In this document: positions 1-21,692 of the stretch, one piece after another
How the letters are laid out: each line of letters begins with the position of its first letter
How positions within the stretch are numbered: position 1 is the stretch's first letter
From: a virus
Lineage: Duplodnaviria; Heunggongvirae; Uroviricota; Caudoviricetes
Length of the DNA stretch: 21,692 nt
Reading direction: 5' to 3' (one strand)
Virus record (IMG/VR): IMGVR_UViG_2541047885_000001
The notes under the pieces: generated by a model
What the model saw: the letters and a program-made list of their open reading frames with translations, nothing else
What the model was told of the DNA's origin: nothing
The model's database searches: none
Translations under genes and position numbers: made by a program

Positions 1-34
1 GTTCTTCTGACAGAACGGCGGCACAGGGATGTGC
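1..34. repeat. Left arm of a perfect 34-bp inverted repeat (partner at 1155..1188); may extend beyond the window edge
   Basis: Bases 1..34 are the exact reverse complement of 1155..1188. The arm contains two small sub-palindromes (GTTC-N8-GAAC and GCACA-N4-TGTGC). Confidence 0.85.
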
Positions 35-151
35 CTTTAAATAATTCTGTACAGATTGCAGGTGAATAGCGTACTATTACCTCAAGGGTAAACGGATTGG
101 TTTCATTTTTATTAATCCGTGTAATGAACTTATGAGATATGAGGTAATGTC

Positions 152-331
152 ATGCGAAACGAAAAATTGCAGATGCGTAGAGCGCAAGCTGCCGCAAGAC
201 GTTCTTTCAATGGAAGCGTAGAGTACGTAAAAGTTACTATGACAAAAGATCACGCAAGTCGCGTATCCCGCGCTTTCTTTGATTCTCGTAACAATAAGGA
301 AAATTATGAGTTCGTCTGCGTCGCAGAATGA
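152..331 (+). CDS. Candidate small basic protein (59 aa), first gene of a possible two-gene cargo module; below the ORF-track length cutoff
   Basis: ATG at 152 with GAGGT 8 nt upstream; open frame to TGA at 329..331; overlaps the start of the downstream ORF by 26 nt in another frame. Arg/Lys-rich translation (MRNEKLQMRRAQAAARR...). Confidence 0.25.
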   Translation: MRNEKLQMRRAQAAARRSFNGSVEYVKVTMTKDHASRVSRAFFDSRNNKENYEFVCVAE

Positions 332-851
332 TAAAAATCAAATTGTCAGATATAAGGGTCGAGTATTGCATACGCAAAATTTCTCGGCCCTTTGTGCATC
401 TGATCTTGAGCTGAAGAAAGTATCTGATGCCTTTACCCAGTATTGGAAAACGGGATACCATCCATCTCTTGGTAAAGATGCTGCATTTGCTCGTCCGACA
501 GAAATGCTTAAACTAAATGTCAGGCATACTCATGTCGATAACCAAGACTATATTCCAGAAGATAGTGATAAAAAACACACTGGTAAAAAATCATCTTGGG
601 ATGCATGGAAAAATATAGCGTCTGTGCAAGTAAAATGCATACCAACAAGTGATTGCTTTTTAGTTTATTCGGTAAATCACAATCGTGATGCGCTGGTTAT
701 GTTTTTTGTTGACGCAGATGCCCACAACATAACTGAGCAAGAAGAGTTTAAAGAGGCAGCAATCACTATCAGTTATCAATTCTTTGAGAAAACAAAAACA
801 GAACCAATGCCTTTAGAAGAAGATCTTTTTTCTGATAAATGGAAGGAATAG
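306..851 (+). CDS. Hypothetical protein (181 aa), low-GC cargo gene; no family recognised
   Basis: ORF-track frame 279..851; ATG at 306 preceded by AAGGA at 296..300. Roughly 38% GC against about 50% in flanking phage genes. Followed directly by an intrinsic terminator. Confidence 0.6.
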   Translation: MSSSASQNDKNQIVRYKGRVLHTQNFSALCASDLELKKVSDAFTQYWKTGYHPSLGKDAAFARPTEMLKLNVRHTHVDNQDYIPEDSDKKHTGKKSSWDAWKNIASVQVKCIPTSDCFLVYSVNHNRDALVMFFVDADAHNITEQEEFKEAAITISYQFFEKTKTEPMPLEEDLFSDKWKE

Positions 852-871
852 CCCGCAGCGCGGGCTTTTTT
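851..871 (+). terminator. Rho-independent terminator after the 181-aa ORF
   Basis: GCCCGC / GCGGGC stem followed by a T6 tract, overlapping the TAG stop. Confidence 0.6.
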
Positions 872-943
872 GTGGACGAAACAAAAGTCAGTGCTACACT
901 CATTGACGCCACATTGAGGTGGCTTATAGATGGAAATTTCACA

Positions 944-1105
944 ATGAAAAAAGCATTTGCTGCACTGTTCGTTTTGTTGTCTCTGGTAGCGTCAACTCAG
1001 GCCTTTGCCGGTCGTTGTCAGCACGACAGCGACACTGCTGCTGACGGCTCACGCTGCGGTGGGCGTTCTGCGGATTCCCGCCCGGGCGGCGGTGGCATTC
1101 GTTAA
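944..1105 (+). CDS. Possible small secreted peptide (53 aa) with a signal-peptide-like N-terminus
   Basis: ATG at 944 within ORF-track frame 839..1105; MKKAFAALFVLLSLVASTQAFA resembles a Sec signal with an AFA-G cleavage site. Weak RBS; Gly/Arg-rich low-complexity tail. Confidence 0.25.
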   Translation: MKKAFAALFVLLSLVASTQAFAGRCQHDSDTAADGSRCGGRSADSRPGGGGIR

Positions 1106-1128
1106 AAACAAGGCCGCGAAAGCGGCCT
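1103..1128 (-). terminator. Intrinsic terminator for the arc-ant transcript
   Basis: AGGCCGC-GAAA-GCGGCCT hairpin (1111..1128); read on the minus strand it is followed by TTTTT. Confidence 0.5.
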
Positions 1129-1140
1129 GTGACATGTCAC
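1129..1140. repeat. 12-bp perfect palindrome GTGACATGTCAC, copy 1
   Basis: Identical 12-mer recurs at 19386..19397; both copies abut a terminator hairpin at a cargo boundary. Confidence 0.8.
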
Positions 1141-1154
1141 GATAGTTTCGTTTT

Positions 1155-1188
1155 GCACATCCCTGTGCCGCCGTTCTGTCAGAAGAAC
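1155..1188. repeat. Right arm of the 34-bp inverted repeat; overlaps the last codons and stop of ant
   Basis: Exact reverse complement of 1..34; the ant stop codon (1179..1181) lies inside the arm. Confidence 0.85.
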
Positions 1189-2123
1189 CCTGCTTTGTCG
1201 TTGATATACTCCGCGTGCGTCTGGATATCACGCAGGCATTTGCTCACACCGACGATGTAGCAGAACATGGTGGTCAGCTCCGCCGCCGCGCCCGATACAT
1301 CGTGCCCGTCGTCCTGCAACTGGTTTAGCAGATTCATCAGCAGTGAGTTCTCCGTCAGGCCGAGAACACCAGACGGAGAATGAATCAGGCTGCGGTAGCC
1401 GGGCTTCAGCGGATAACCATAACATTTTGTCTGTGTTTTAATTGCCTCACGAAGCGCATCTAACATCTTGACTGCCACTTCATCATTCTCTGATGCAGAT
1501 CCAGCAGGGAGATGCTCCCCTTCAAGCGGAACCCGAGCAACAAGAGACAACGCTTCGGCGAATTGATCTTCATCAATTTCTTTGTACGAACAGCCAAAAT
1601 GAGATTTCAGTGACGACCACATGGTGATCATCGCCTTAGCCTGTTTTTCTTTTGGCAGAGACTGACCGCGACTCATGACGAGTTGTTTAATGGCTTCCTG
1701 CTGTTCAGTGGTTATTTTACCCGGCAACGCCTTTTTAGCTTTGCGTGGGTTAACCACATGGCCTTTAGTCCAGTACTCGTAGAGCACATCGTCACACTCT
1801 TCCTGATACTGGATTACCTTGTCGCGGATTTCAGGACGGACTTTGTTAGGGCTGATGGTTTGCAACCAGCCAGCAAGTTTGCGAAGTGCCAAACAAATAA
1901 TCTCACGGCGCTGTTCATCCCCAGGAAGCTGCATTGTGATTTTCACAATGCAGGTTTTAAACCGCTGCTTCATTTTCGTAAACTGTGAAGCCCAATCCAT
2001 ACCCATGCCTTCAACGATAGGTTTCATTGGGGTGTACGGTTCTCCGTTGTGATTGACAACATAAAGTTCTGCGCCGTGGAATGGCACGTTGATAGTAGAT
2101 ACCGCTGTTGCTATACTCGTCAT
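1179..2123 (-). CDS. ant: Phage antirepressor (Ant-like), 314 aa
   Basis: Sits downstream of an Arc-like gene and divergent from an Mnt-like gene, as in P22 immI. N-terminal region looks like antirepressor N-domains; size close to P22 Ant (300 aa). Confidence 0.75.
   Translation of the reverse strand: MTSIATAVSTINVPFHGAELYVVNHNGEPYTPMKPIVEGMGMDWASQFTKMKQRFKTCIVKITMQLPGDEQRREIICLALRKLAGWLQTISPNKVRPEIRDKVIQYQEECDDVLYEYWTKGHVVNPRKAKKALPGKITTEQQEAIKQLVMSRGQSLPKEKQAKAMITMWSSLKSHFGCSYKEIDEDQFAEALSLVARVPLEGEHLPAGSASENDEVAVKMLDALREAIKTQTKCYGYPLKPGYRSLIHSPSGVLGLTENSLLMNLLNQLQDDGHDVSGAAAELTTMFCYIVGVSKCLRDIQTHAEYINDKAGFF
2089..2117 (+). promoter_or_regulatory. Sigma70-like promoter antisense to the ant 5' end (candidate Psar)
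   Basis: TTGATA (2089..2094), 17-bp spacer, TATACT (2112..2117); predicted start near 2124, opposite the ant start codon (2121..2123). Confidence 0.45.
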
Positions 2124-2197
2124 GTCGTTAATTCCTATACGTAGTTTTACGATACTGAAGCCCTGACGGTCTGGCCACCGTTGGGCTTCGCTGTTTT
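2124..2197 (+). ncRNA. Candidate sar-like antisense RNA (~70-75 nt) covering the ant start codon and RBS
   Basis: Runs from the antisense promoter to a plus-strand hairpin (GAAGCCC 2157..2163 paired with GGGCTTC 2183..2189, inner ACGGT/ACCGT stem) followed by a T-rich stretch. Complementary to the ant SD (2133..2136) and ATG. Architecture parallels P22 sar. Confidence 0.4.
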
Positions 2198-2363
2198 ATG
2201 CCACGCTATTCTTCTCACCAGTGAGTCCATACACTTTCCTCAGCTGATAGATAATCTCTGTATTGAACTTTCGGCATTCTTTTTCGCCATTTCTTTCAAT
2301 AGCTAACTTCACATCGTCCGGAAAACGAACTCGTCGTTGACACATCTCTTTTGCTTTTTGCAT
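2196..2363 (-). CDS. arc: Arc-like ribbon-helix-helix repressor (55 aa from ATG 2363; the ORF track extends to a TTG at 2399)
   Basis: ATG at 2363 with AAGGAG 7 nt upstream. Translation matches the Arc pattern (basic N-terminal beta strand, RVRFPDDV..., NTEIIYQL). Lies immediately upstream of ant. Confidence 0.8.
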   Translation of the reverse strand: MQKAKEMCQRRVRFPDDVKLAIERNGEKECRKFNTEIIYQLRKVYGLTGEKNSVA

Positions 2364-2483: not shown

Positions 2484-2915
2484 ATGAGCAGAGAAGATCC
2501 ACAACTAAGGATCAGACTTCCCGTTGAAGTAAAAGAAAAAATAGAAATTTCTGCAAAAGCCAATAAGCGATCAATGAACGCTGAAATAGTACAACGTCTT
2601 GACACCAGCTTTCTGAAAGATATTCATGAAGATGACGTAATTTCTGCTTATGAAGCAAAAATTATTGCAAACAATGCACGACATGAAATATTAAATATTA
2701 TTTTCAAAAGAACCTTTAATGAAATTAATAAGAAAATAACACTTGGACATACAAGTTTTTATATAAACCTTAATGACCTTGAACTGGAATCACTTGCAGA
2801 TAATGATTACCAGATCATCTTTGAAAAAACATTTAATAAGCTCAATGAACTAGGTTACATCATCTGTGAAAACTCATGGGATGCAGATGGTTTTGGAATT
2901 GAAATACCTGAATAG
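2484..2915 (+). CDS. mnt: Mnt-like RHH repressor (143 aa) with an unrecognised ~95-aa C-terminal domain
   Basis: ATG at 2484 with GGTGA 5 nt upstream. N-terminus (DPQLRIRLPVEVKEKIEISAKANKRSMNAEIVQRL) closely resembles the P22 Mnt DNA-binding domain as I recall it. C-terminal domain contains an internal repeat. About 30% GC. Confidence 0.8.
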   Translation: MSREDPQLRIRLPVEVKEKIEISAKANKRSMNAEIVQRLDTSFLKDIHEDDVISAYEAKIIANNARHEILNIIFKRTFNEINKKITLGHTSFYINLNDLELESLADNDYQIIFEKTFNKLNELGYIICENSWDADGFGIEIPE

Positions 2916-2947: not shown

Positions 2948-3005
2948 TTTAATACAATTGAAAAACGCCACATTACTGATGTATGTTACAACAAGGAGCG
3001 ATATT

Positions 3006-3569
3006 TTGAAAACCATATCTATATTAAAGGTTGCATTAGGCGTCGCTATTATTTTGACTCTCTCAATATTGTTTTATTTTTACCACAAAAAAACTGCTAT
3101 TGCTCTTGATGGTCACACGGCAAACTCATTTTTCTCAGAGTACATAGTGCCGCTATCAGGAAGCGGTATAACAAATAAATATACTGACTATGACATCAAA
3201 TATGGAATTGATGATGGGAAGACTATTGTATTACATGTAATCATTAAAAACCTAATGACAGTAAATAAAAATACAGACTTTAACGATAAAAATACAATAC
3301 ATCACAACAACAGCAAAACATTAATTTCTTATAGTAGCAACATCTATACGGATAAATACCTAAAATACATATCAGAAGATACAATAAAAGAAACCCGCGA
3401 AAAGTTAAAAAACATATATTGTGCATCCGGCAGTTTTCACAAATTATCGCCGCAAGAGCGTTTATTCTACGAAGCAAGAAAACAACGTAAGTCAATAATA
3501 TTACATTATTATGCTGATTCAGGGGAATCACTCATATTTAATATTGGGGTTTCCCCTGAATCATGCTAA
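3006..3569 (+). CDS. Hypothetical single-pass membrane protein (187 aa from TTG 3006; alternative ATG at 2979), low-GC cargo
   Basis: Perfect AAGGAG (2993..2998) 7 nt upstream of TTG 3006. N-terminal hydrophobic helix ISILKVALGVAIILTLSILFYFY followed by HKK. Same strand as and just downstream of mnt-like. Asn/Lys/Tyr/Ile-rich. Confidence 0.7.
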   Translation: MKTISILKVALGVAIILTLSILFYFYHKKTAIALDGHTANSFFSEYIVPLSGSGITNKYTDYDIKYGIDDGKTIVLHVIIKNLMTVNKNTDFNDKNTIHHNNSKTLISYSSNIYTDKYLKYISEDTIKETREKLKNIYCASGSFHKLSPQERLFYEARKQRKSIILHYYADSGESLIFNIGVSPESC

Positions 3570-3580
3570 AGGTGTTTAAC

Positions 3581-6500
3581 TCACCGCATCACCGGATCCA
3601 CCTGGTTTATTAGTGGCGCAATCCAGAACAGGTTATTGCCTGGTATCAGGGTTCGGGCATTATGCACAATACGATCACCGGCATCACCATTCAACACTCC
3701 TGCGGTCACATCAATGATGCTATCCGCAAGACCAAATGACGGTCCGAATAGAGATCCTACGAATCCACGACTGGCATACCTAGACTGTGTGCCAGTGCCA
3801 AATAAAGCCCCCAGCCCAACAGCACCACCAGTAGCCTTTTCAGCCATGTTGTTATATTCCATCAATGGTCCAAGAATACCGGATCTATCTATACCCTCAA
3901 GCACCAGTTTCTCTGGTGACCAGTCAACATTTTTCCCTTTCGATGCTTCTTTAAGCGCATAGACCAGTGAGCCAAGAGCAATCTGAAATGCAGTGCCATA
4001 ATAAAATTGCGCAGTTCCTTCCTGTAACCCACCAAGTAGCGCACGGTTGTATGAAGCCGTTGTGAATGATTTAAACTGAAATATCGTTCGCCCCATTGGA
4101 GTACTCGCCCATAAAGGTGTGTCACCAATACCGGGGGTGATGATAGTGTTATTAACGTCTTTCAGAACCGCTGACTGGAATACTCCGGCAACGTACTGAT
4201 CATCCCATTTATCAAAGTTACCAATGTGCCATCCATCAATTACCTCGCCATGTTTCCCGAACTCACTGCGAATACGTGCAGCCATATTGTCGTTGATACC
4301 GAGTTTTGCCAGGCGGCGTGCAGGAAATGCACCGGACAAAATACCGTCTGAAATAACCATTCCGTTCATGGATTTGTTTATGTCATTAAAGCGATCCATG
4401 AGTGTCAGCTTGCCGAAGGCATCAGTAATTCGCTCCATTCCGGCTTCGACTGCTGTTGTCCTGGAAGAGCTGTCAACAAGATCACCAATTGCACGAGAGC
4501 GTGAATGCAGTACAGTTTCCAGTCCGATACCCATCTTCAACATCTCTTCTTTGCTGGCCTTAAATGCCGGTGATTGGGATATCTGAGAAGCATAGCCTTT
4601 CATGGTGTTACGGAAACCATTAACCATAACCCCTCTGGCCAGATCTGGAATAGCTGATACTGTCATTCCACCGAGTTTGGTCGTGAAGTTCACATCCCGC
4701 AGAAAAGCGCCAGCACGAACAAAAAACGAAGACGGATCATCAGGCATCCCATATGTACCAACAAGACGATCGCGTAATGCTGTTATGTCTCTGAGATCAT
4801 TTGCTCTTGATTTTGAAAGTCTGGACTGTTCTTTCCGTAATTCCTTTTCGTACTTTCGCATTAATGAATCGAGTTTACCCTGAGGAACAACTTCACCATT
4901 GCTCTCATAACGTGCTTTCAGATTTGCCACACTTTCGTCATATTTCGCCTTTATTTTTTCAGGCACTTCCCGTAACAGACTGTCATATTCGTCCTCAATT
5001 AATTGCAGACGCTCAGTCATAGTTCGTTTGCCAAATGTTCTCGTCAACTCAATTTCTGCTGCCGCTTCACGGATATGACGTTGCAGCACGTAATTCACAT
5101 CACTTTCAAGATAATCCCTGATAAGACTATCAGGAACATTTAATGTTCTTTCTTTCGTACTACCTGCGGCTTTTACAGAAAATACGCTGACAAAATCCTG
5201 TGGAACCTTAGCACCAGTAATTTTATTAATTACGATATCTGCTGCAATTTCAGCATCCTCAGGAACCAGTGTTTTATTTCCTCTCGACCACCAGTCAACC
5301 AAAATACGTCGAAATTTATCGCGTTCACTGATTATTTTTCCAACTTTATATATGCGTGGGAAATAGCTTGCCTGGCCTAATGCTTTCAGTTCTTCATCTG
5401 GCGGCAATAAACCAAGCTTTTGCATTTCAACTTTCACCCGATTTAATACAGTTCGCATCGCCTGCGCCGTTTCCTGAACAACAGGATTAGCATGCACATC
5501 ACCGCTTCGCATAGCATTCCCAACCTGCTGACGAAATGAATCAAAACTCATGTCACCACCATCAGCTTTATACTTTGCGTATGCCTGTTTATTTCCGACA
5601 ACAACAGCAGCTTCTTCACGCTGCCATCCACGTGTACGGGTTTCTACAGCTACCGGTGTTTCAATCCCCCTTTCATTTCCTTTAAGGGTGAAATTATTTT
5701 CGGCTAACTCCAGCGTTGTTTTTCGCACTGTCCTGGACGGAGACTCCATTAACCTTGTCAAAGGAGTAAGATAGCTCCCTGCTTTCCATGCAGCCTTTCC
5801 AACCACCCCACCAGAAACAGGGGTTAAATCATCCAGAGTCGCTGTATCAATTTTCATAGCACCAACACTACCACCATCGGAAAGCGAAGCGGCAGCCCTG
5901 TCAGTCACTGATGTAATGCTCATATTATCAAGAGCATCAGCAACCTCACGTGTGGCTGCAGCCCGGACGGATGGCGAAAGCGCAACACCAGCACTGGCAA
6001 ACACGCCGCTCATCATCGCCCCCGCTGCAACGTGAGCGGCACTTTCACCCCATGAGCGTGTTATTTGCTGATTATTCAGTACAACCTCGCTTAATGCTGT
6101 ACCGGCAGCACCAATCGCAATCTGTGAGCCAATACGCGCCAGTGCCCCTCCTTGAGCACCGGGAATAAACATTGACGCAACAGTAACCGGATCCATTCCC
6201 GCAGCAATACTGGCAAGGGTTCCAACTACGCCAGCATCAGACAATAAACGTCTGTCTTCATTTTCATCATCTATCTGCTGCTTAATCCACGCCGTTTCCT
6301 CTGGTGATCGGGAATCTGCAAATTTCGCCCCCCAGTATTCATAACCGTGCAACTCATTTTTATCAGCATATGGGTTATAACCCTCGACCGGTTCAAACTG
6401 TCTGGCTGGGCGGAAAAAACCAGACAGAATATTGTTCTGTCGCATTGCAGCCCCCCATACGGAAGGCTCAGGTGGCAATGGCTCAGGATTAGCCCCTTCC

Positions 6501-6595
6501 GGAAGGGCAACATCAAACCCAGTTTGTTCCGGCAAAACATTACCTGACGGGATCAGTCCGTTATTAAGATCTTCAGCTTGTGCATAAACTGGCAT
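3581..6595 (-). CDS. Internal virion / DNA-ejection protein (1004 aa)
   Basis: Last gene of the late operon before immI (the position of P22 gp16). Long coiled-coil-like segments and Gly/Ala-rich hydrophobic stretches. ATGA start/stop overlap with the upstream gene at 6595. Confidence 0.8.
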   Translation of the reverse strand: MPVYAQAEDLNNGLIPSGNVLPEQTGFDVALPEGANPEPLPPEPSVWGAAMRQNNILSGFFRPARQFEPVEGYNPYADKNELHGYEYWGAKFADSRSPEETAWIKQQIDDENEDRRLLSDAGVVGTLASIAAGMDPVTVASMFIPGAQGGALARIGSQIAIGAAGTALSEVVLNNQQITRSWGESAAHVAAGAMMSGVFASAGVALSPSVRAAATREVADALDNMSITSVTDRAAASLSDGGSVGAMKIDTATLDDLTPVSGGVVGKAAWKAGSYLTPLTRLMESPSRTVRKTTLELAENNFTLKGNERGIETPVAVETRTRGWQREEAAVVVGNKQAYAKYKADGGDMSFDSFRQQVGNAMRSGDVHANPVVQETAQAMRTVLNRVKVEMQKLGLLPPDEELKALGQASYFPRIYKVGKIISERDKFRRILVDWWSRGNKTLVPEDAEIAADIVINKITGAKVPQDFVSVFSVKAAGSTKERTLNVPDSLIRDYLESDVNYVLQRHIREAAAEIELTRTFGKRTMTERLQLIEDEYDSLLREVPEKIKAKYDESVANLKARYESNGEVVPQGKLDSLMRKYEKELRKEQSRLSKSRANDLRDITALRDRLVGTYGMPDDPSSFFVRAGAFLRDVNFTTKLGGMTVSAIPDLARGVMVNGFRNTMKGYASQISQSPAFKASKEEMLKMGIGLETVLHSRSRAIGDLVDSSSRTTAVEAGMERITDAFGKLTLMDRFNDINKSMNGMVISDGILSGAFPARRLAKLGINDNMAARIRSEFGKHGEVIDGWHIGNFDKWDDQYVAGVFQSAVLKDVNNTIITPGIGDTPLWASTPMGRTIFQFKSFTTASYNRALLGGLQEGTAQFYYGTAFQIALGSLVYALKEASKGKNVDWSPEKLVLEGIDRSGILGPLMEYNNMAEKATGGAVGLGALFGTGTQSRYASRGFVGSLFGPSFGLADSIIDVTAGVLNGDAGDRIVHNARTLIPGNNLFWIAPLINQVDPVMR

Positions 6596-9312
6596 TATTT
6601 AGATCCCCACGAAAAGTAATCTTTAAATTTGTCCATACGTTCGTTATGCAGGCGCTGATACTGCTCATCCAGAGCGCGATGCTTGTCTTTGAAGTTTCGT
6701 ATAGCCTGTCCACGCATAATTTCTTCCTGCTCGTACTGCTCCCGTTCCTGCTGCATTTTCTTATAAGGTTCCCAATCTTCTAGTGATGGTTCCCAACGCA
6801 TAGGACGCCCATGTTTGTTATAAAACGGCTGGACCCGATCGATGCCATTTTCATCCTTAGTTCTTACCATAATGGCGTAATCACCATTACGGGGTGTTAA
6901 CACGTCAGGGGTTATGAATAATTCGCCATTAATACGACTCTCAGGGGTTTTTGTCTCAACTACAGGAGCATTACCTGACGTGATCCCAAGCAACGTCGGA
7001 CTGGTTGTTATAATCTCTTTGCGCTCACCGTACATCAGCCGTTCTTTTTCAGCTTTCCACTGCGCCGCCTGCCAGCCTGACGGCCCATATTGATAAAGCG
7101 CCTCCGGTGCATATTTCATAAACTGCGCTTCTCCGTTGACCTCGCTGATACTCCAGGTGCGGGCTATCTGCTGGTTGGTCATTTGCTTCGCTACGTCAGC
7201 GTTACCACCAGCAACGCGGTAGTTAATGTCATACAGCGTCTGATAGTCATTACGGAATCTAGCTGCTTCCGGCGTCTGGTCATCCGCAGACGGATCCCAA
7301 CGGAACCACTGCGCCATATTGCTGACAGCAGAATTCATCGCCTTGCTGCGATCATTTTTGTACTCTTTTGAACTCTGCGTTGATGCCAATTGAGCTTTAA
7401 GAGCATCGGTCTGGTTGTATGTAAGGTTCTGCGCCTGCTCGATAGCCGCATCAGCAGACATGCCAGAATCAGTTAGTTGCTTAACAGTCAGATAAAAACC
7501 CTGCATATCCTTCGGCATATTTCCAATAGATGCATTGTCTGTTTCATATAACCGACTAAACAAATTCGCTGCATTTTTAACCACTTCCTGATTGCTGGAT
7601 CGGGATACTGCTGAAAGCTGCGTGATGACCTGCGAAGGCATTATGCCAGTCTGAGCCACAAGCCGAACAACCCCATCATGAGTGGAGACATCATTAATAC
7701 GAAAGTTCTGCGCCATTTCTGTGTAATCAGCAGCTTTCTGCATTGACTTGTTGCTTGGGTCTAATTTTTCACCTATTGTCAGCGCCTCATTGAATCTGCG
7801 TGAATCCCGTTGCGCCTGAATTGCTTCATTTGATCTCTGAAGCAATGCAGACAATTTTCCGTAAGCATCGAGTTTTAACGCATAGTGAGGATCGTTAACC
7901 TCAGGCTTCACTTTCTGCATTTCTTCTTGCTGCTGAGAAGGAGGTAAATACTGAATTGCCTGGAATATTCTCGCGTTATCAATCGCTATATCCAGTTGAT
8001 TGATTATTTTATCTGCATTTTTTCCATACCCCCTGATGATAGTCTCCTGAGCCGGTATATAATCTGGAACCTCACCGTTATATAGCTGGGCCATGGTGTT
8101 ATTAATAGCTGGCTCAAGCTGTTCTAATATTAACTTCCTTTGCTTTTCTATCTGACTATTAGCAAGGTTATCTATTTGATAAATAGTCAGCGGATCCATT
8201 CCAGTTTTATTTTTTCTATATCGGGAAAGCCACCCTTGTGTTTCTGATGGAAGATTTCGGATAAATTCTTCTTCTGATATTTCACCTTTACGTGGATCAC
8301 CGACTTTGGCGATCAGTTTATCCACGTTACCCATCCCCCAGTTATATGCTGCTCCGGTCAATATTTCGGAACCGTACTTACCATACAGTTGATTTACATA
8401 GTCACTGGCGAGCATTTCATGCTGTTGTTCGTCCGTAGGGTTGTATTCAACGCCACGTTTGGCCGCCAGTTCTTTCCCTGTGCCCGGCATTAACTGGTAT
8501 TTCCCCTGGGCCCTCTCTCCAGAAGATGTTTTCGGTCCTTCAAGAATACTACCATCAGGATTAAAATGACGATCACCTGATTCAACAAGGCGTATGGCAC
8601 GCATGTCCATGCCTCCAGAATCATTTTTCTGAAACTGACCATTTAACCATCCTTCCGGATTAGCAGCGGCATAATTCTTCGCCCGCATTTCTGTGGCACT
8701 GCGATCATCACTTTCTATTTCTTCCAGAATGCGTTCTTGTGACCATCCCCTGGCTGCTCCATATCTGGCAATGGCTACCATTCTGGAATTTCTGGCTAAA
8801 GTGGCAGTTTGCGGGTCATTCCAGGCATCCGCTTCATTTTGTATCCATAATTTTCTCGTTGCCTGATATTGCTCATCTTCATAGGCATTTGTCTGCCCTA
8901 TCTCATGTCTGAGAACTCCAGTACTGAACTGAATTTTCTGTGTTCTGGCTTGTTGCAAAAACATATTTCTTGCTGCTTCATCAGTCAATGAAGCAGCTAT
9001 TTCTTCCACATCCTGATCAAATCCAGATATGTACTCTTGCCCCTTACCAATCGCATTTTTGCCTTGTTGTGCATAAAAACCGGTTTGAGGGTTATAAAGA
9101 CGTTCATTGCTGCGCTGATTAAGCTGAAGTATGGCATCCTGAGACAATGCAACATTCGCTTTCTGCCTGGCTTCACCATATGCCACCGCATACTGATCTG
9201 CGACATTCGCCAGCACCTGACCTGCTTGAGGAACATCGAAGGTTTGAAAACCACCGGTTTGCACACCACGACTTTGCACCTGGCGTCCGGATGTAGTAGG
9301 AACAACAGGCAT
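6595..9312 (-). CDS. Internal virion protein with a lytic transglycosylase (SLT) domain (905 aa)
   Basis: Residues ~235-335 (about 8308..8610) carry an SLT-like signature: VESGDRHF, GKYQLMPGTG, AAYNWGMG. Position and size fit a T7 gp15/gp16-type core protein. Confidence 0.85.
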   Translation of the reverse strand: MPVVPTTSGRQVQSRGVQTGGFQTFDVPQAGQVLANVADQYAVAYGEARQKANVALSQDAILQLNQRSNERLYNPQTGFYAQQGKNAIGKGQEYISGFDQDVEEIAASLTDEAARNMFLQQARTQKIQFSTGVLRHEIGQTNAYEDEQYQATRKLWIQNEADAWNDPQTATLARNSRMVAIARYGAARGWSQERILEEIESDDRSATEMRAKNYAAANPEGWLNGQFQKNDSGGMDMRAIRLVESGDRHFNPDGSILEGPKTSSGERAQGKYQLMPGTGKELAAKRGVEYNPTDEQQHEMLASDYVNQLYGKYGSEILTGAAYNWGMGNVDKLIAKVGDPRKGEISEEEFIRNLPSETQGWLSRYRKNKTGMDPLTIYQIDNLANSQIEKQRKLILEQLEPAINNTMAQLYNGEVPDYIPAQETIIRGYGKNADKIINQLDIAIDNARIFQAIQYLPPSQQQEEMQKVKPEVNDPHYALKLDAYGKLSALLQRSNEAIQAQRDSRRFNEALTIGEKLDPSNKSMQKAADYTEMAQNFRINDVSTHDGVVRLVAQTGIMPSQVITQLSAVSRSSNQEVVKNAANLFSRLYETDNASIGNMPKDMQGFYLTVKQLTDSGMSADAAIEQAQNLTYNQTDALKAQLASTQSSKEYKNDRSKAMNSAVSNMAQWFRWDPSADDQTPEAARFRNDYQTLYDINYRVAGGNADVAKQMTNQQIARTWSISEVNGEAQFMKYAPEALYQYGPSGWQAAQWKAEKERLMYGERKEIITTSPTLLGITSGNAPVVETKTPESRINGELFITPDVLTPRNGDYAIMVRTKDENGIDRVQPFYNKHGRPMRWEPSLEDWEPYKKMQQEREQYEQEEIMRGQAIRNFKDKHRALDEQYQRLHNERMDKFKDYFSWGSK

Positions 9313-18222: not shown

Positions 18223-18300
18223 TTAAATTATTACCAATTTAACCACACATGATTTATTTATCGTAGGTAGTTGACATTTAACGCACAAATTATTACCTTT
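18223..18300. promoter_or_regulatory. AT-rich promoter-like region at the edge of the terL-portal insertion
   Basis: Plus strand: TTGACA (18271..18276), 17 bp, TACCTT. Minus strand: TTGTGC, 17 bp, TACGAT. Confidence 0.3.
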
Positions 18301-19011
18301 CAGGTAACCAAAGAGTTCATTCCGGTTACTAACCTGACTGGCTTGTCGTTAAATTGAACAGGTGGAGTGAGCTTTTATTTTGAGCAGTACGGCGTATGGC
18401 ACATGCGCCGATAGCGGTCTGGATACGTTTAAGGGGCACCCTCCCTTGCTCGGGCAAACGAACCAGGTAGCCGGAATGTGCAAGTCGAGCGGTTTTATTC
18501 CGCGCACGGGGATTCACCATCCCGGCGATCAGGTGTGACACCTCGGAAGAGACGAGGATGCAACAGGTAAGAGCATTGAGATTGATCGTCGTTCCTGGGC
18601 CCAAGGTCTGCTCGAAGTCAGTGCTCTTTCCGTTGTGGTGAATGCGCAGGCTGATGCGCACCCCGTGAACGTGGGGGAATGGGTAAGGCATAAGCCTGAG
18701 TTGGAAGACAAGCTGCGTGAATAGCCGGAAGTCAGGGTTACCCAACAAACTCAGTGAAAATCATGACGCATATCCTCTTGAGAGAGTGGCAGCTAACACT
18801 GAGCATATTTCAAGCCGGAGATCAGCACCGGCCACCACAACCCAATCACGTTAGGACCGTGATACGGCAGTACCAGGCAATGCGTGTAGCTTTGGCGGTG
18901 GCAGTTCTCCTTCTTCTGACCACCGCCCTTTTTACAGCAGAACGCCATTCCGATGACGTTGCGCTGTAAACCCTGCATCACCCGCCAAGGAAGGCACTCC
19001 GTTGATCATTC
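18300..19011 (+). ncRNA. ORF-poor ~700-nt region; candidate structured RNA or long regulatory leader (function unknown)
   Basis: No convincing ORF on either strand despite ~55% GC; bounded by a consensus -35 upstream and an intrinsic terminator placed 12 nt before the next RBS. Several GC-rich hairpins visible. Confidence 0.2.
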
Positions 19012-20947: not shown

Positions 20948-21543
20948 TGATTGCCATCCTGACGTTCTTTCAGTCTCTTCCTGGCTGCCGCTATGCGATC
21001 AGCAATTGTCACATTCACATTAACATCCAGGCGTTCTTTGAATGCGTTGACGTCGACGTGCTTACCAATCAGTTCGAGGTTCTTCACCTTGTCAGGCCAT
21101 TTAATTTTTTTGAGGATGCCAACCAGCTCTTTCTCGTCTCCACGGCCTTCGAACATGTCGGCCAGTTCGAAACCTGTCAGGTACTGCCGCCAGACCTTAG
21201 GCCATTCCGAGACCGGCTTGATGCTCATATCGTCGTTGAGAATGTCAATCACGTCCATCTGGTCGATCTCCACCAGGCGCATGAGAACGTAATCAGCACT
21301 GACGCGCATTCGTTTGTTGCGCTCCTCCATCAACTCGGCAATCCGTTTCTGAATGCGTTCATCGCGCATCATGACACTGGCTTTAACTGCCGCTGTATTT
21401 GGGGAGAATCCTGCATTAATCGCAGCCTGAGTCTGGTTTTCAGGCGTTTTGATGTATGACTGGCAATAAGCCTCCTGCATTGCTGTTAGTGGCTTAAATT
21501 GCGTTGATTTGCGTTTATAGGTTTTAGGTTCAGCAGGCATCAT
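20944..21543 (-). CDS. Terminase small subunit (~199 aa from the ATG at 21543/21540; the ORF track extends to TTG 21588)
   Basis: Immediately upstream of and coupled to terL; N-terminal region has a terminase small subunit-like pattern (LTAMQEAYCQSYIKTPENQTQAAINAGFSP). GGTGG lies 5 nt before the second ATG. Confidence 0.8.
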   Translation of the reverse strand: MMPAEPKTYKRKSTQFKPLTAMQEAYCQSYIKTPENQTQAAINAGFSPNTAAVKASVMMRDERIQKRIAELMEERNKRMRVSADYVLMRLVEIDQMDVIDILNDDMSIKPVSEWPKVWRQYLTGFELADMFEGRGDEKELVGILKKIKWPDKVKNLELIGKHVDVNAFKERLDVNVNVTIADRIAAARKRLKERQDGNQ

Positions 21544-21550
21544 AACCACC

Positions 21551-21579
21551 GTGGTAATAGTTACCGTTGTGGTAATAGT
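21551..21579. repeat. Direct repeat GTGGTAATAGT x2 (7-bp spacer) in the terS 5' leader
   Basis: 11-mer at 21551..21561 and 21569..21579, between the upstream terminator and the probable terS start. Confidence 0.5.
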
Positions 21580-21616: not shown

Positions 21617-21692
21617 TGAACCGCCCCGGGAATCCTGGAGACTAAACTTCCTGAGAAAGAGGTAAACAGGATGACTAAAAATACTCGTTTTT
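21617..21692 (+). mobile_element. Left end of an IS3-family insertion sequence (IS629-like), truncated by the window edge
   Basis: TGAACCGCCCCGGGAATCCTGGAG... matches my recollection of the IS629 left terminus; an orfA start (MTKNTRF) follows with RBS AGAGGT. Confidence 0.7.
21671..21692 (+). CDS. IS3-family transposase OrfA, first 7 codons only
   Basis: ATG at 21671; MTKNTRF matches the IS629-type OrfA N-terminus from memory. Confidence 0.65.

Follow-up and report, generated by a model that had tools for sequence, protein, structure and literature searches.

A perfect inverted repeat beside ant in a TL-2011b-like Escherichia coli prophage and a probable cargo slot between convergent antirepressor genes

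Introduction

Accessory-gene (moron) hotspots of phages, as seen in lambdoid and P22-like mosaicism and in the anti-phage hotspots of P2/P4 type, hold varied genes at a fixed position; the cargo comes with a terminator of its own and departs from its surroundings in GC content, insert-free forms exist, and identical flanks occur beside different cargos. The locus described here shares these features and would, on the reading that we favor, be a known kind of locus with a mild twist, namely that the flanking homology is inverted. The described hotspots exchange their cargo by homologous recombination in the conserved genes on either side. Unlike their flanks, those of the present locus are inverted copies of one coding module, which makes either orientation of the cargo possible, and, unlike the cargo of the P2/P4-type anti-phage hotspots, the cargo proteins tested here have no PADLOC match to a defense family.

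Invertible segments constitute a second described system. Mu G, P1 C and Salmonella H are gene-bearing segments that are bounded by inverted repeats and found in both orientations among strains, traits that also appear here, and a repeat length of 34 bp brings to mind the inverted repeats that bound Mu G. The present locus differs from all three in having no invertase and no hix/gix site, in arms that consist of 260-300 nt of coding sequence, and in that the one informative allele change lies ~95 nt into an arm.

The neighborhood of the locus resembles the immI region of P22, with a sar RNA, an Arc-like gene upstream of ant, a gene for an Arc-domain protein on the other strand, and an Ant protein with a P22_AR_N domain. 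It departs from P22 immI in that the host phage is TL-2011b-like and not P22-like, in that P22_AR_N is the only Pfam domain of Ant, whose C-terminal ~90 aa are common to Bro-N/AntA proteins, and in the presence of a second, convergent antirepressor gene. Finally, the toxin-like cargo gene is comparable to the YafN-YafO type II toxin-antitoxin system of E. coli in its Pfam match to YafO and in the small overlapping ORF that precedes it; unlike in YafN-YafO, the match is marginal, the upstream ORF belongs to no antitoxin family, and the site is a prophage cargo slot.

Results

The window, by which we mean the whole 21,692-nucleotide stretch analyzed (IMG/VR record IMGVR_UViG_2541047885_000001), comprises the late genes and the immI region of a TL-2011b-like E. 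coli prophage. Phage TL-2011b covers 93% of it at 97.6% identity, and the related phage vB_EcoP_ZX5 has been placed in the genus Uetakevirus (PMC9782041). A sar RNA, arc, mnt and ant, the combination that marks an immI-type region, are found together to the right of the cassette (Table 1).

Table 1. Features of the left part of the window, in window coordinates
Feature	Position	Strand	Remarks
Left arm of the inverted repeat	1..34	+	cut by contig end
End of plus-strand antirepressor gene	1-10		last codons and stop (..FF*) of a gene lost in the gap; within left arm
3' tail	11-34		24 nt, common to both arms; within left arm
Cargo leader	35..151	+	~65 nt conserved in most cargo types
Operator-like palindrome TTACCTCAAGGGTAA	77-91		within cargo leader
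59-aa ORF	152..331	+	phrog_6685 (unknown function); gp45 in TL-2011b
YafO-family toxin-like protein, 181 aa	306..851	+	Pfam YafO_toxin PF13957
Intrinsic terminator hairpin	850..866	+	after toxin-like gene
53-aa protein	944..1105	+	signal-peptide-like N-terminus; phrog_14503, "membrane associated protein", moron category
Terminator hairpin and T run	1111..1128	-	inside the "cassette"
Full right arm	1155..1452	-	24-nt tail and coding sequence of the Ant C-terminal module (~aa 225-314)
ant, 314 aa	1179..2123	-	P22_AR_N N-terminal domain and shared C-terminal module
sar antisense RNA	2125..2192	+	Rfam RF00262, 45.2 bits vs gathering score 43
Arc-like small repressor gene	2196..2363	-	upstream of ant; PHROG Arc-like repressor
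mnt-position gene	2484..2915	+	Arc-type ribbon-helix-helix domain; Pfam Arc, 1e-14

The preliminary description of this DNA had drawn attention to a low-GC cassette at the left end of the window, bounded by a perfect 34-bp inverted repeat with two sub-palindromes in each arm, the right arm of which provides the last codons and stop of ant. Each of these sequence observations is borne out, with a reservation about base composition. Positions 1-34 and 1155-1188 are exact reverse complements (100% complementary, far above chance), each arm holds the two 5-bp sub-palindromes GTTCT..AGAAC and GCACA..TGTGC, and the stop and last codons of ant, which ends ...GFF*, lie inside the right arm. A search for further copies of the 34-mer, as had been proposed, returned in the window only these two sites with up to three mismatches allowed, and none in 100 shuffled sequences. 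The low GC content (35-42%) is confined to positions 1-900 and does not extend to the last ~250 nt of the segment; the region 900-1200, which contains the small secreted-protein gene, has 55-60% GC.

The length of the repeat is explained by the source scaffold. Positions 1-2400 of the window match scaffold KE701653.1 (GCA_000460275.1; locus L090) at 2400 of 2400 nucleotides, with a run of ~596 N directly left of base 1 (L090 8124-8719) and a second N run directly right of base 21692 (L098 1452-2255). The entire window is a single contig of this scaffold, with a gap on either side. Because the N run adjoins base 1, the contig breaks off inside the repeat and truncates the left arm, and the length of 34 bp is an assembly artefact and not a biological property.

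Beyond the contig end, relatives give the repeat a length of 257-298 nt or more, in agreement with the earlier guess that it might be longer than 34 bp and extend outside the window. The inverted repeat measures 292 nt at 91% identity in both TL-2011b and E. coli OkiPb01683, 257 nt at 98% in ETEC4085, and 478 nt with additional upstream blocks in UTME-12, where the greater length is due to both flanking genes being of the Bro-N type. Among 29 arm pairs, all span 260-330 nt except one that is cut by a contig end, and the arms match exactly at their inner ends over 4 to 95 nt. The repeat is built from two convergent antirepressor genes, of which it takes in the last ~78-90 codons and 24 nt more. 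A plus-strand Bro-N CDS ends at the equivalent of window base 10 both in TL-2011b and in the complete OkiPb01683 genome, and the antirepressor gene of the left arm is likewise of the Bro-N type in the closest resolved relatives. Judged from these alignments, the 34-bp repeat appears to be only the innermost part of an inverted duplication of 260-300 bp formed by two antirepressor genes standing tail to tail.

The two antirepressor genes are domain-shuffled. Their products have unrelated N-terminal domains (P22_AR_N and Bro-N in Pfam) and nearly the same C-terminus: over the C-terminal ~100 aa, Ant and the Bro-N protein of the related locus L001 are identical at 85 of 101 positions (84%), and the last 77 aa are identical. 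The C-terminal module of both arms matches phrog_450; no Pfam family was found for it, and literature searches found no description of this repeat. The tail alleles among the 29 arm pairs read ..GCCGTTCTGTCAGAAGAAC, ..GCCGCCCGTCAGAAGAAC and ..GCCGCCGTCAGAAGAAC. Since the alleles differ (TTCTG vs CCCG or CCG), the first sub-palindrome is specific to the allele; in the second, one pair is broken by an A/G polymorphism. One locus (L031) has a single tail allele on both arms, with an exact run of 63 nt. The suggestion that the arms are recombinase or transposase binding sites is not upheld: they are the coding 3' ends of paralogous antirepressor genes, the first sub-palindrome of which depends on the allele. 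The preliminary description had also named three outcomes that would speak against its own reading, and two of them were observed: no recombinase lies nearby, and the 34-mer is, as the relatives display, simply the edge of a long duplicated region containing the 3' end of ant.

The segment between the arms contains its own genes and terminators, and its earlier portrayal as exchangeable cargo is well founded. The last 26 nt of the 59-aa ORF run into the toxin-like gene, a position that suggests an antitoxin; the ORF has no match to a Pfam family or to an antitoxin family. The 181-aa product of the following gene matches YafO_toxin marginally (25.9 bits vs a Pfam cut-off of 25), and the RefSeq product name in relatives also supports the assignment. 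PADLOC gave no match for nine cassette and cargo proteins, the YafO-like protein included. Nearly all cargo types end with a common terminator followed by the 53-aa secreted-protein gene, which is their conserved 3' module. The hairpin at 1111-1128 is likely the terminator of ant.

Upstream of the cargo genes, the leader contains in most relatives a promoter-like element of the form TTGCAG-17nt-TACTAT, placed immediately ahead of the palindrome. Its spacing in the window is only 10 nt (window 56-77; compare L001 6056-6090), as 7 nt (ACTGGGG) are missing, and L010 is likewise shortened. No promoter-like site was found in window 1-150, and the cargo promoter may be disabled in the window allele by the 10-nt spacing.

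The diversity of the cargo was assessed in 80 IMG/VR loci with the C-terminal module, onto each of which probes were mapped. Two convergent arms are present in 29 of them, always with the segment between the antirepressor 3' ends, and the inner segments fall into 10 clusters, whose contents include YafO-like, DUF2335 and DUF4760 proteins, membrane proteins and unknowns. The cargo of the window is one of at least 10 alternatives. An identical 314-aa Ant stands beside six different gene contents. The locus thus presents varied genes at a fixed position between conserved flanks, as in a moron hotspot, and the terminator at 850-866 and the GC content of 35-42% over positions 1-900 are further features of the moron kind; the promoter-like element of most relatives has a spacing of 10 nt in the window. 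In many phages the cargo follows a Bro-N gene and a single arm, and no second arm is present, so that the second arm is not needed for cargo to be present. In L007, both the Bro-N gene and the cargo are absent, and a gp47-like gene directly faces ant. A 2400-bp query finds at least a partial match in roughly one fifth of complete E. coli genomes.

The orientation of the segment differs among relatives, though not for the cargo of the window. The YafO cargo is in the native arrangement in 10 complete E. coli genomes, and a version with 35-1154 inverted in silico next to ant occurs in none of 5426 complete E. coli genomes. Another cargo of 1006 nt, with two hypothetical genes and the small gene, is inverted in ETEC4085 and native in UTAK-6, both of them complete genomes that have the left-hand AntA gene and the right-hand ant in common. 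The flanks of the two are collinear at 99.4-99.8%, while 3744-5263, comprising arms and cargo, is inverted at 98.5%. The difference is a clean inversion with breakpoints inside the arms, and the earlier idea of an invertible segment is supported to the extent that both orientations of an inter-arm segment occur among related prophages. The right arm of ETEC4085 is chimeric, of the ant type outside and with the left-arm allele over the inner 95 nt; a crossover or conversion inside the arm would yield such a structure. A further locus, L024, is inverted relative to L010 and L021 beside the same Bro-N allele.

Two other candidates were set aside. In L009, which might be read as an inverted YafO cassette, the contig stops 34 nt past the cassette, leaving the case ambiguous between an inversion and a path chosen by the assembler. 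For L045 and L036, orientation measured from the tailspike side proved unsafe, as the small gene stays by the same Bro-N allele: the whole antirepressor-cargo-antirepressor block differs and not the inner segment alone.

Arms of the same genome are hardly more alike than arms of different genomes (median similarity 96.0% within vs 95.6% between genomes). This marginal difference gives no strong sign of ongoing arm-to-arm conversion and argues against an active, dedicated homogenizing mechanism.

Discussion

Taken together, the locus is very probably an accessory-gene hotspot between convergent antirepressor genes, the cargo of which is swapped, and occasionally flipped, by general homologous recombination. 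The inverted duplication stems from tail-to-tail antirepressor genes that have a C-terminal module and a 24-nt tail in common, the plus-strand partner being of Bro-N/AntA/ORF6N type, presumably in the scaffold gap here, and the minus-strand partner a P22_AR_N-type ant. The slot is laid out as a conserved leader with promoter-like element and operator-like palindrome, one or two variable ORFs (here the 59-aa ORF and the YafO-like gene), a terminator, the small secreted-protein gene, and the ant terminator. Cargo could be replaced, stacked and occasionally inverted via host RecA or phage RecT/exonuclease VIII, with the arms, the leader and the small-gene module as portable homology; TL-2011b has RecT-like and exonuclease VIII genes. 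Since the arms are inverted copies, the cassette could recombine in either orientation, and a crossover inside the arms would keep both antirepressor reading frames intact. Three observations count against this explanation. The YafO cargo is inverted in none of the 5426 complete E. coli genomes, and the comparison of arms within and between genomes gives no strong sign of ongoing conversion. Beyond the left gap of the scaffold (L090), moreover, a Bro-N gene and an arm precede a cargo module with a 108-aa ORF and a DUF2335 gene, after which come a terminator and 11 nt from the start of the small-protein gene; given this DUF2335 module across the gap, the structure left of the window may be compound or mis-scaffolded.

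A programmed switch, in which the 34-bp arms are Hin/Gin/Cin-type or tyrosine invertase sites that flip 35-1154 within a population, is highly improbable, even though the occurrence of inter-arm segments in both orientations among strains, like the Mu G-like length, can be offered for it. That length was set by a contig end, one sub-palindrome varies with the allele, the other has a pair broken by the A/G polymorphism, and the allele change in the right arm of ETEC4085 lies ~95 nt from the inner end and not within the 34-mer. The preliminary description had considered an invertible segment and advised looking for an adjacent recombinase; no invertase was found among the window ORFs or anywhere in TL-2011b, in the annotation of which only a distant integrase appears (192-1439, ~30 kb away), and the consensus pattern TTNTCNNAAACCNNGGTTTNNGANAA of the 26-bp hix/gix-type crossover sites has no match in the window with up to three mismatches. 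The other form that it had proposed, a small mobile cargo element (IS, MITE or cargo transposon) inserted next to ant and bounded by terminal inverted repeats, is scarcely credible. A perfect terminal inverted repeat around low-GC cargo would fit such an element; however, there is no transposase among the three cargo ORFs (Pfam, PHROG), among the other window ORFs or in TL-2011b, the repeat continues for 260-300 nt into the genes on both sides, within their coding sequences, and in every two-arm locus the segment lies between antirepressor 3' ends, with no copies at unrelated loci with target-site duplications seen. Cargo follows one arm in many phages that have no second arm, and no precise empty site turned up in related prophages, the cassette-free L007 having also lost the whole Bro-N gene. 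It is equally remote that the left 34-mer is a spurious reverse-complement contig end with no inverted repeat in the genome. The N runs at both ends of the contig and the similar 34-nt contig end of L009 would be in keeping with such an error; against it, the arm stands directly left of the same cassette in L001, L002, L091 and L092, which are complete genomes and a finished phage, and L031 has the same tail allele on both arms over its 63-nt exact run.

The inversion could also have been selected as a regulatory device, in that a flip moves the ant terminator (1111-1128) away and sets cargo transcription against ant. The ant terminator does lie within the invertible part, and in the inverted ETEC4085 locus ant adjoins the cargo leader instead; inverted forms are rare, however, and no recombinase is present to drive switching, so that we regard such a device as quite unlikely. 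The consequence that orientation would tune antirepressor output and prophage induction is just as doubtful. An extended form, in which inverted coding arms were selected both for capturing cargo in either orientation and for rewiring ant termination and antisense transcription, is improbable as well; if it were true, inversion would make antirepressor output, prophage inducibility and cargo expression vary in a heritable way.

On the favored reading, that of a hotspot served by general homologous recombination, common E. coli prophages have here a cargo slot that is very active, with an identical antirepressor beside many uncharacterized small genes, YafO-like toxin genes among them. It would be a convenient place to hunt for genes that benefit the lysogen or act against other phages, as well as a natural case of orientation-free cassette exchange by homologous recombination. 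Our results also remove a false lead, a perfect 34-bp inverted repeat resembling recombinase sites, and illustrate how a contig end can disguise a long coding repeat as a short, neat site.

Additional observations

An 85-aa gp47-like gene, located left of the window in relatives (4754-5011 in L001), is a stand-alone copy of the C-terminal module (phrog_450 at 1.8e-47; 42% identical to Ant aa 235-310), which brings the module copies at the locus to three. A scan of species-representative genomes returned only two distant relatives, Scandinavium and Superficieibacter, with the module in tandem and not convergent; in both (L101, L102) a stand-alone module copy and a full antirepressor stand in tandem.

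The loop of the cargo terminator exists in both orientations, GCCCGC-AGC-GCGGGC (window 850-866) and GCCCGC-GCT-GCGGGC (L090 8805-8825), and the hairpin with flipped loop also ends other cargo modules. ETEC1749 has a pair of cargo modules in tail-to-tail arrangement, with the palindromic terminator as their junction (L086, ~3002-3016). The flipped loop and this joint suggest recombination within the terminator palindrome.

The palindrome TTACC-N5-GGTAA is strongly over-represented, with 4 occurrences in the window vs 0.39 expected and 14 in TL-2011b (L085) vs 0.97. Its window sites are at 77-91, 18293-18307 and 21543-21575. In TL-2011b it lies on both sides of the HTH repressor gene gp10, and also upstream of int, terS, the Bro-N gene, gp47 and the cassette. 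It probably serves the prophage repressor as operator, in which case the cargo slot would be under repressor control.

A Logan contig of run SRR958575 with the same terminase is 20,263 nt long; by coordinate arithmetic it would end near window base 1383, inside the right arm. Between the mnt-like gene and a 1004-aa virion gene lies a 203-aa ORF (2958-3569, plus strand) with a GC content of 28-33%. It has no Pfam family, belongs to phrog_8033 (unknown function) and gives a weak ThsB/TIR-like PADLOC match (E = 0.0036); it could be a superinfection-exclusion or defense gene.

The IMG/VR contig L024 has three arms (3628-7803): a pair of Bro-N genes and a truncated ant, represented by an N-terminal fragment, precede a complete arm-cargo-arm unit. 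Slots thus occur in arrays, and an array of this type may be relevant to the scaffold gap on the left. Several prophages have a partial, inverted P22_AR_N fragment of ant beside a Bro-N gene and lack arc, mnt and the 203-aa gene (L004 3820-4086; also L021, L026, L036, L051, L052, L065, L066, L075 and L082). These loci look like larger immI rearrangements, presumably also via the shared module.
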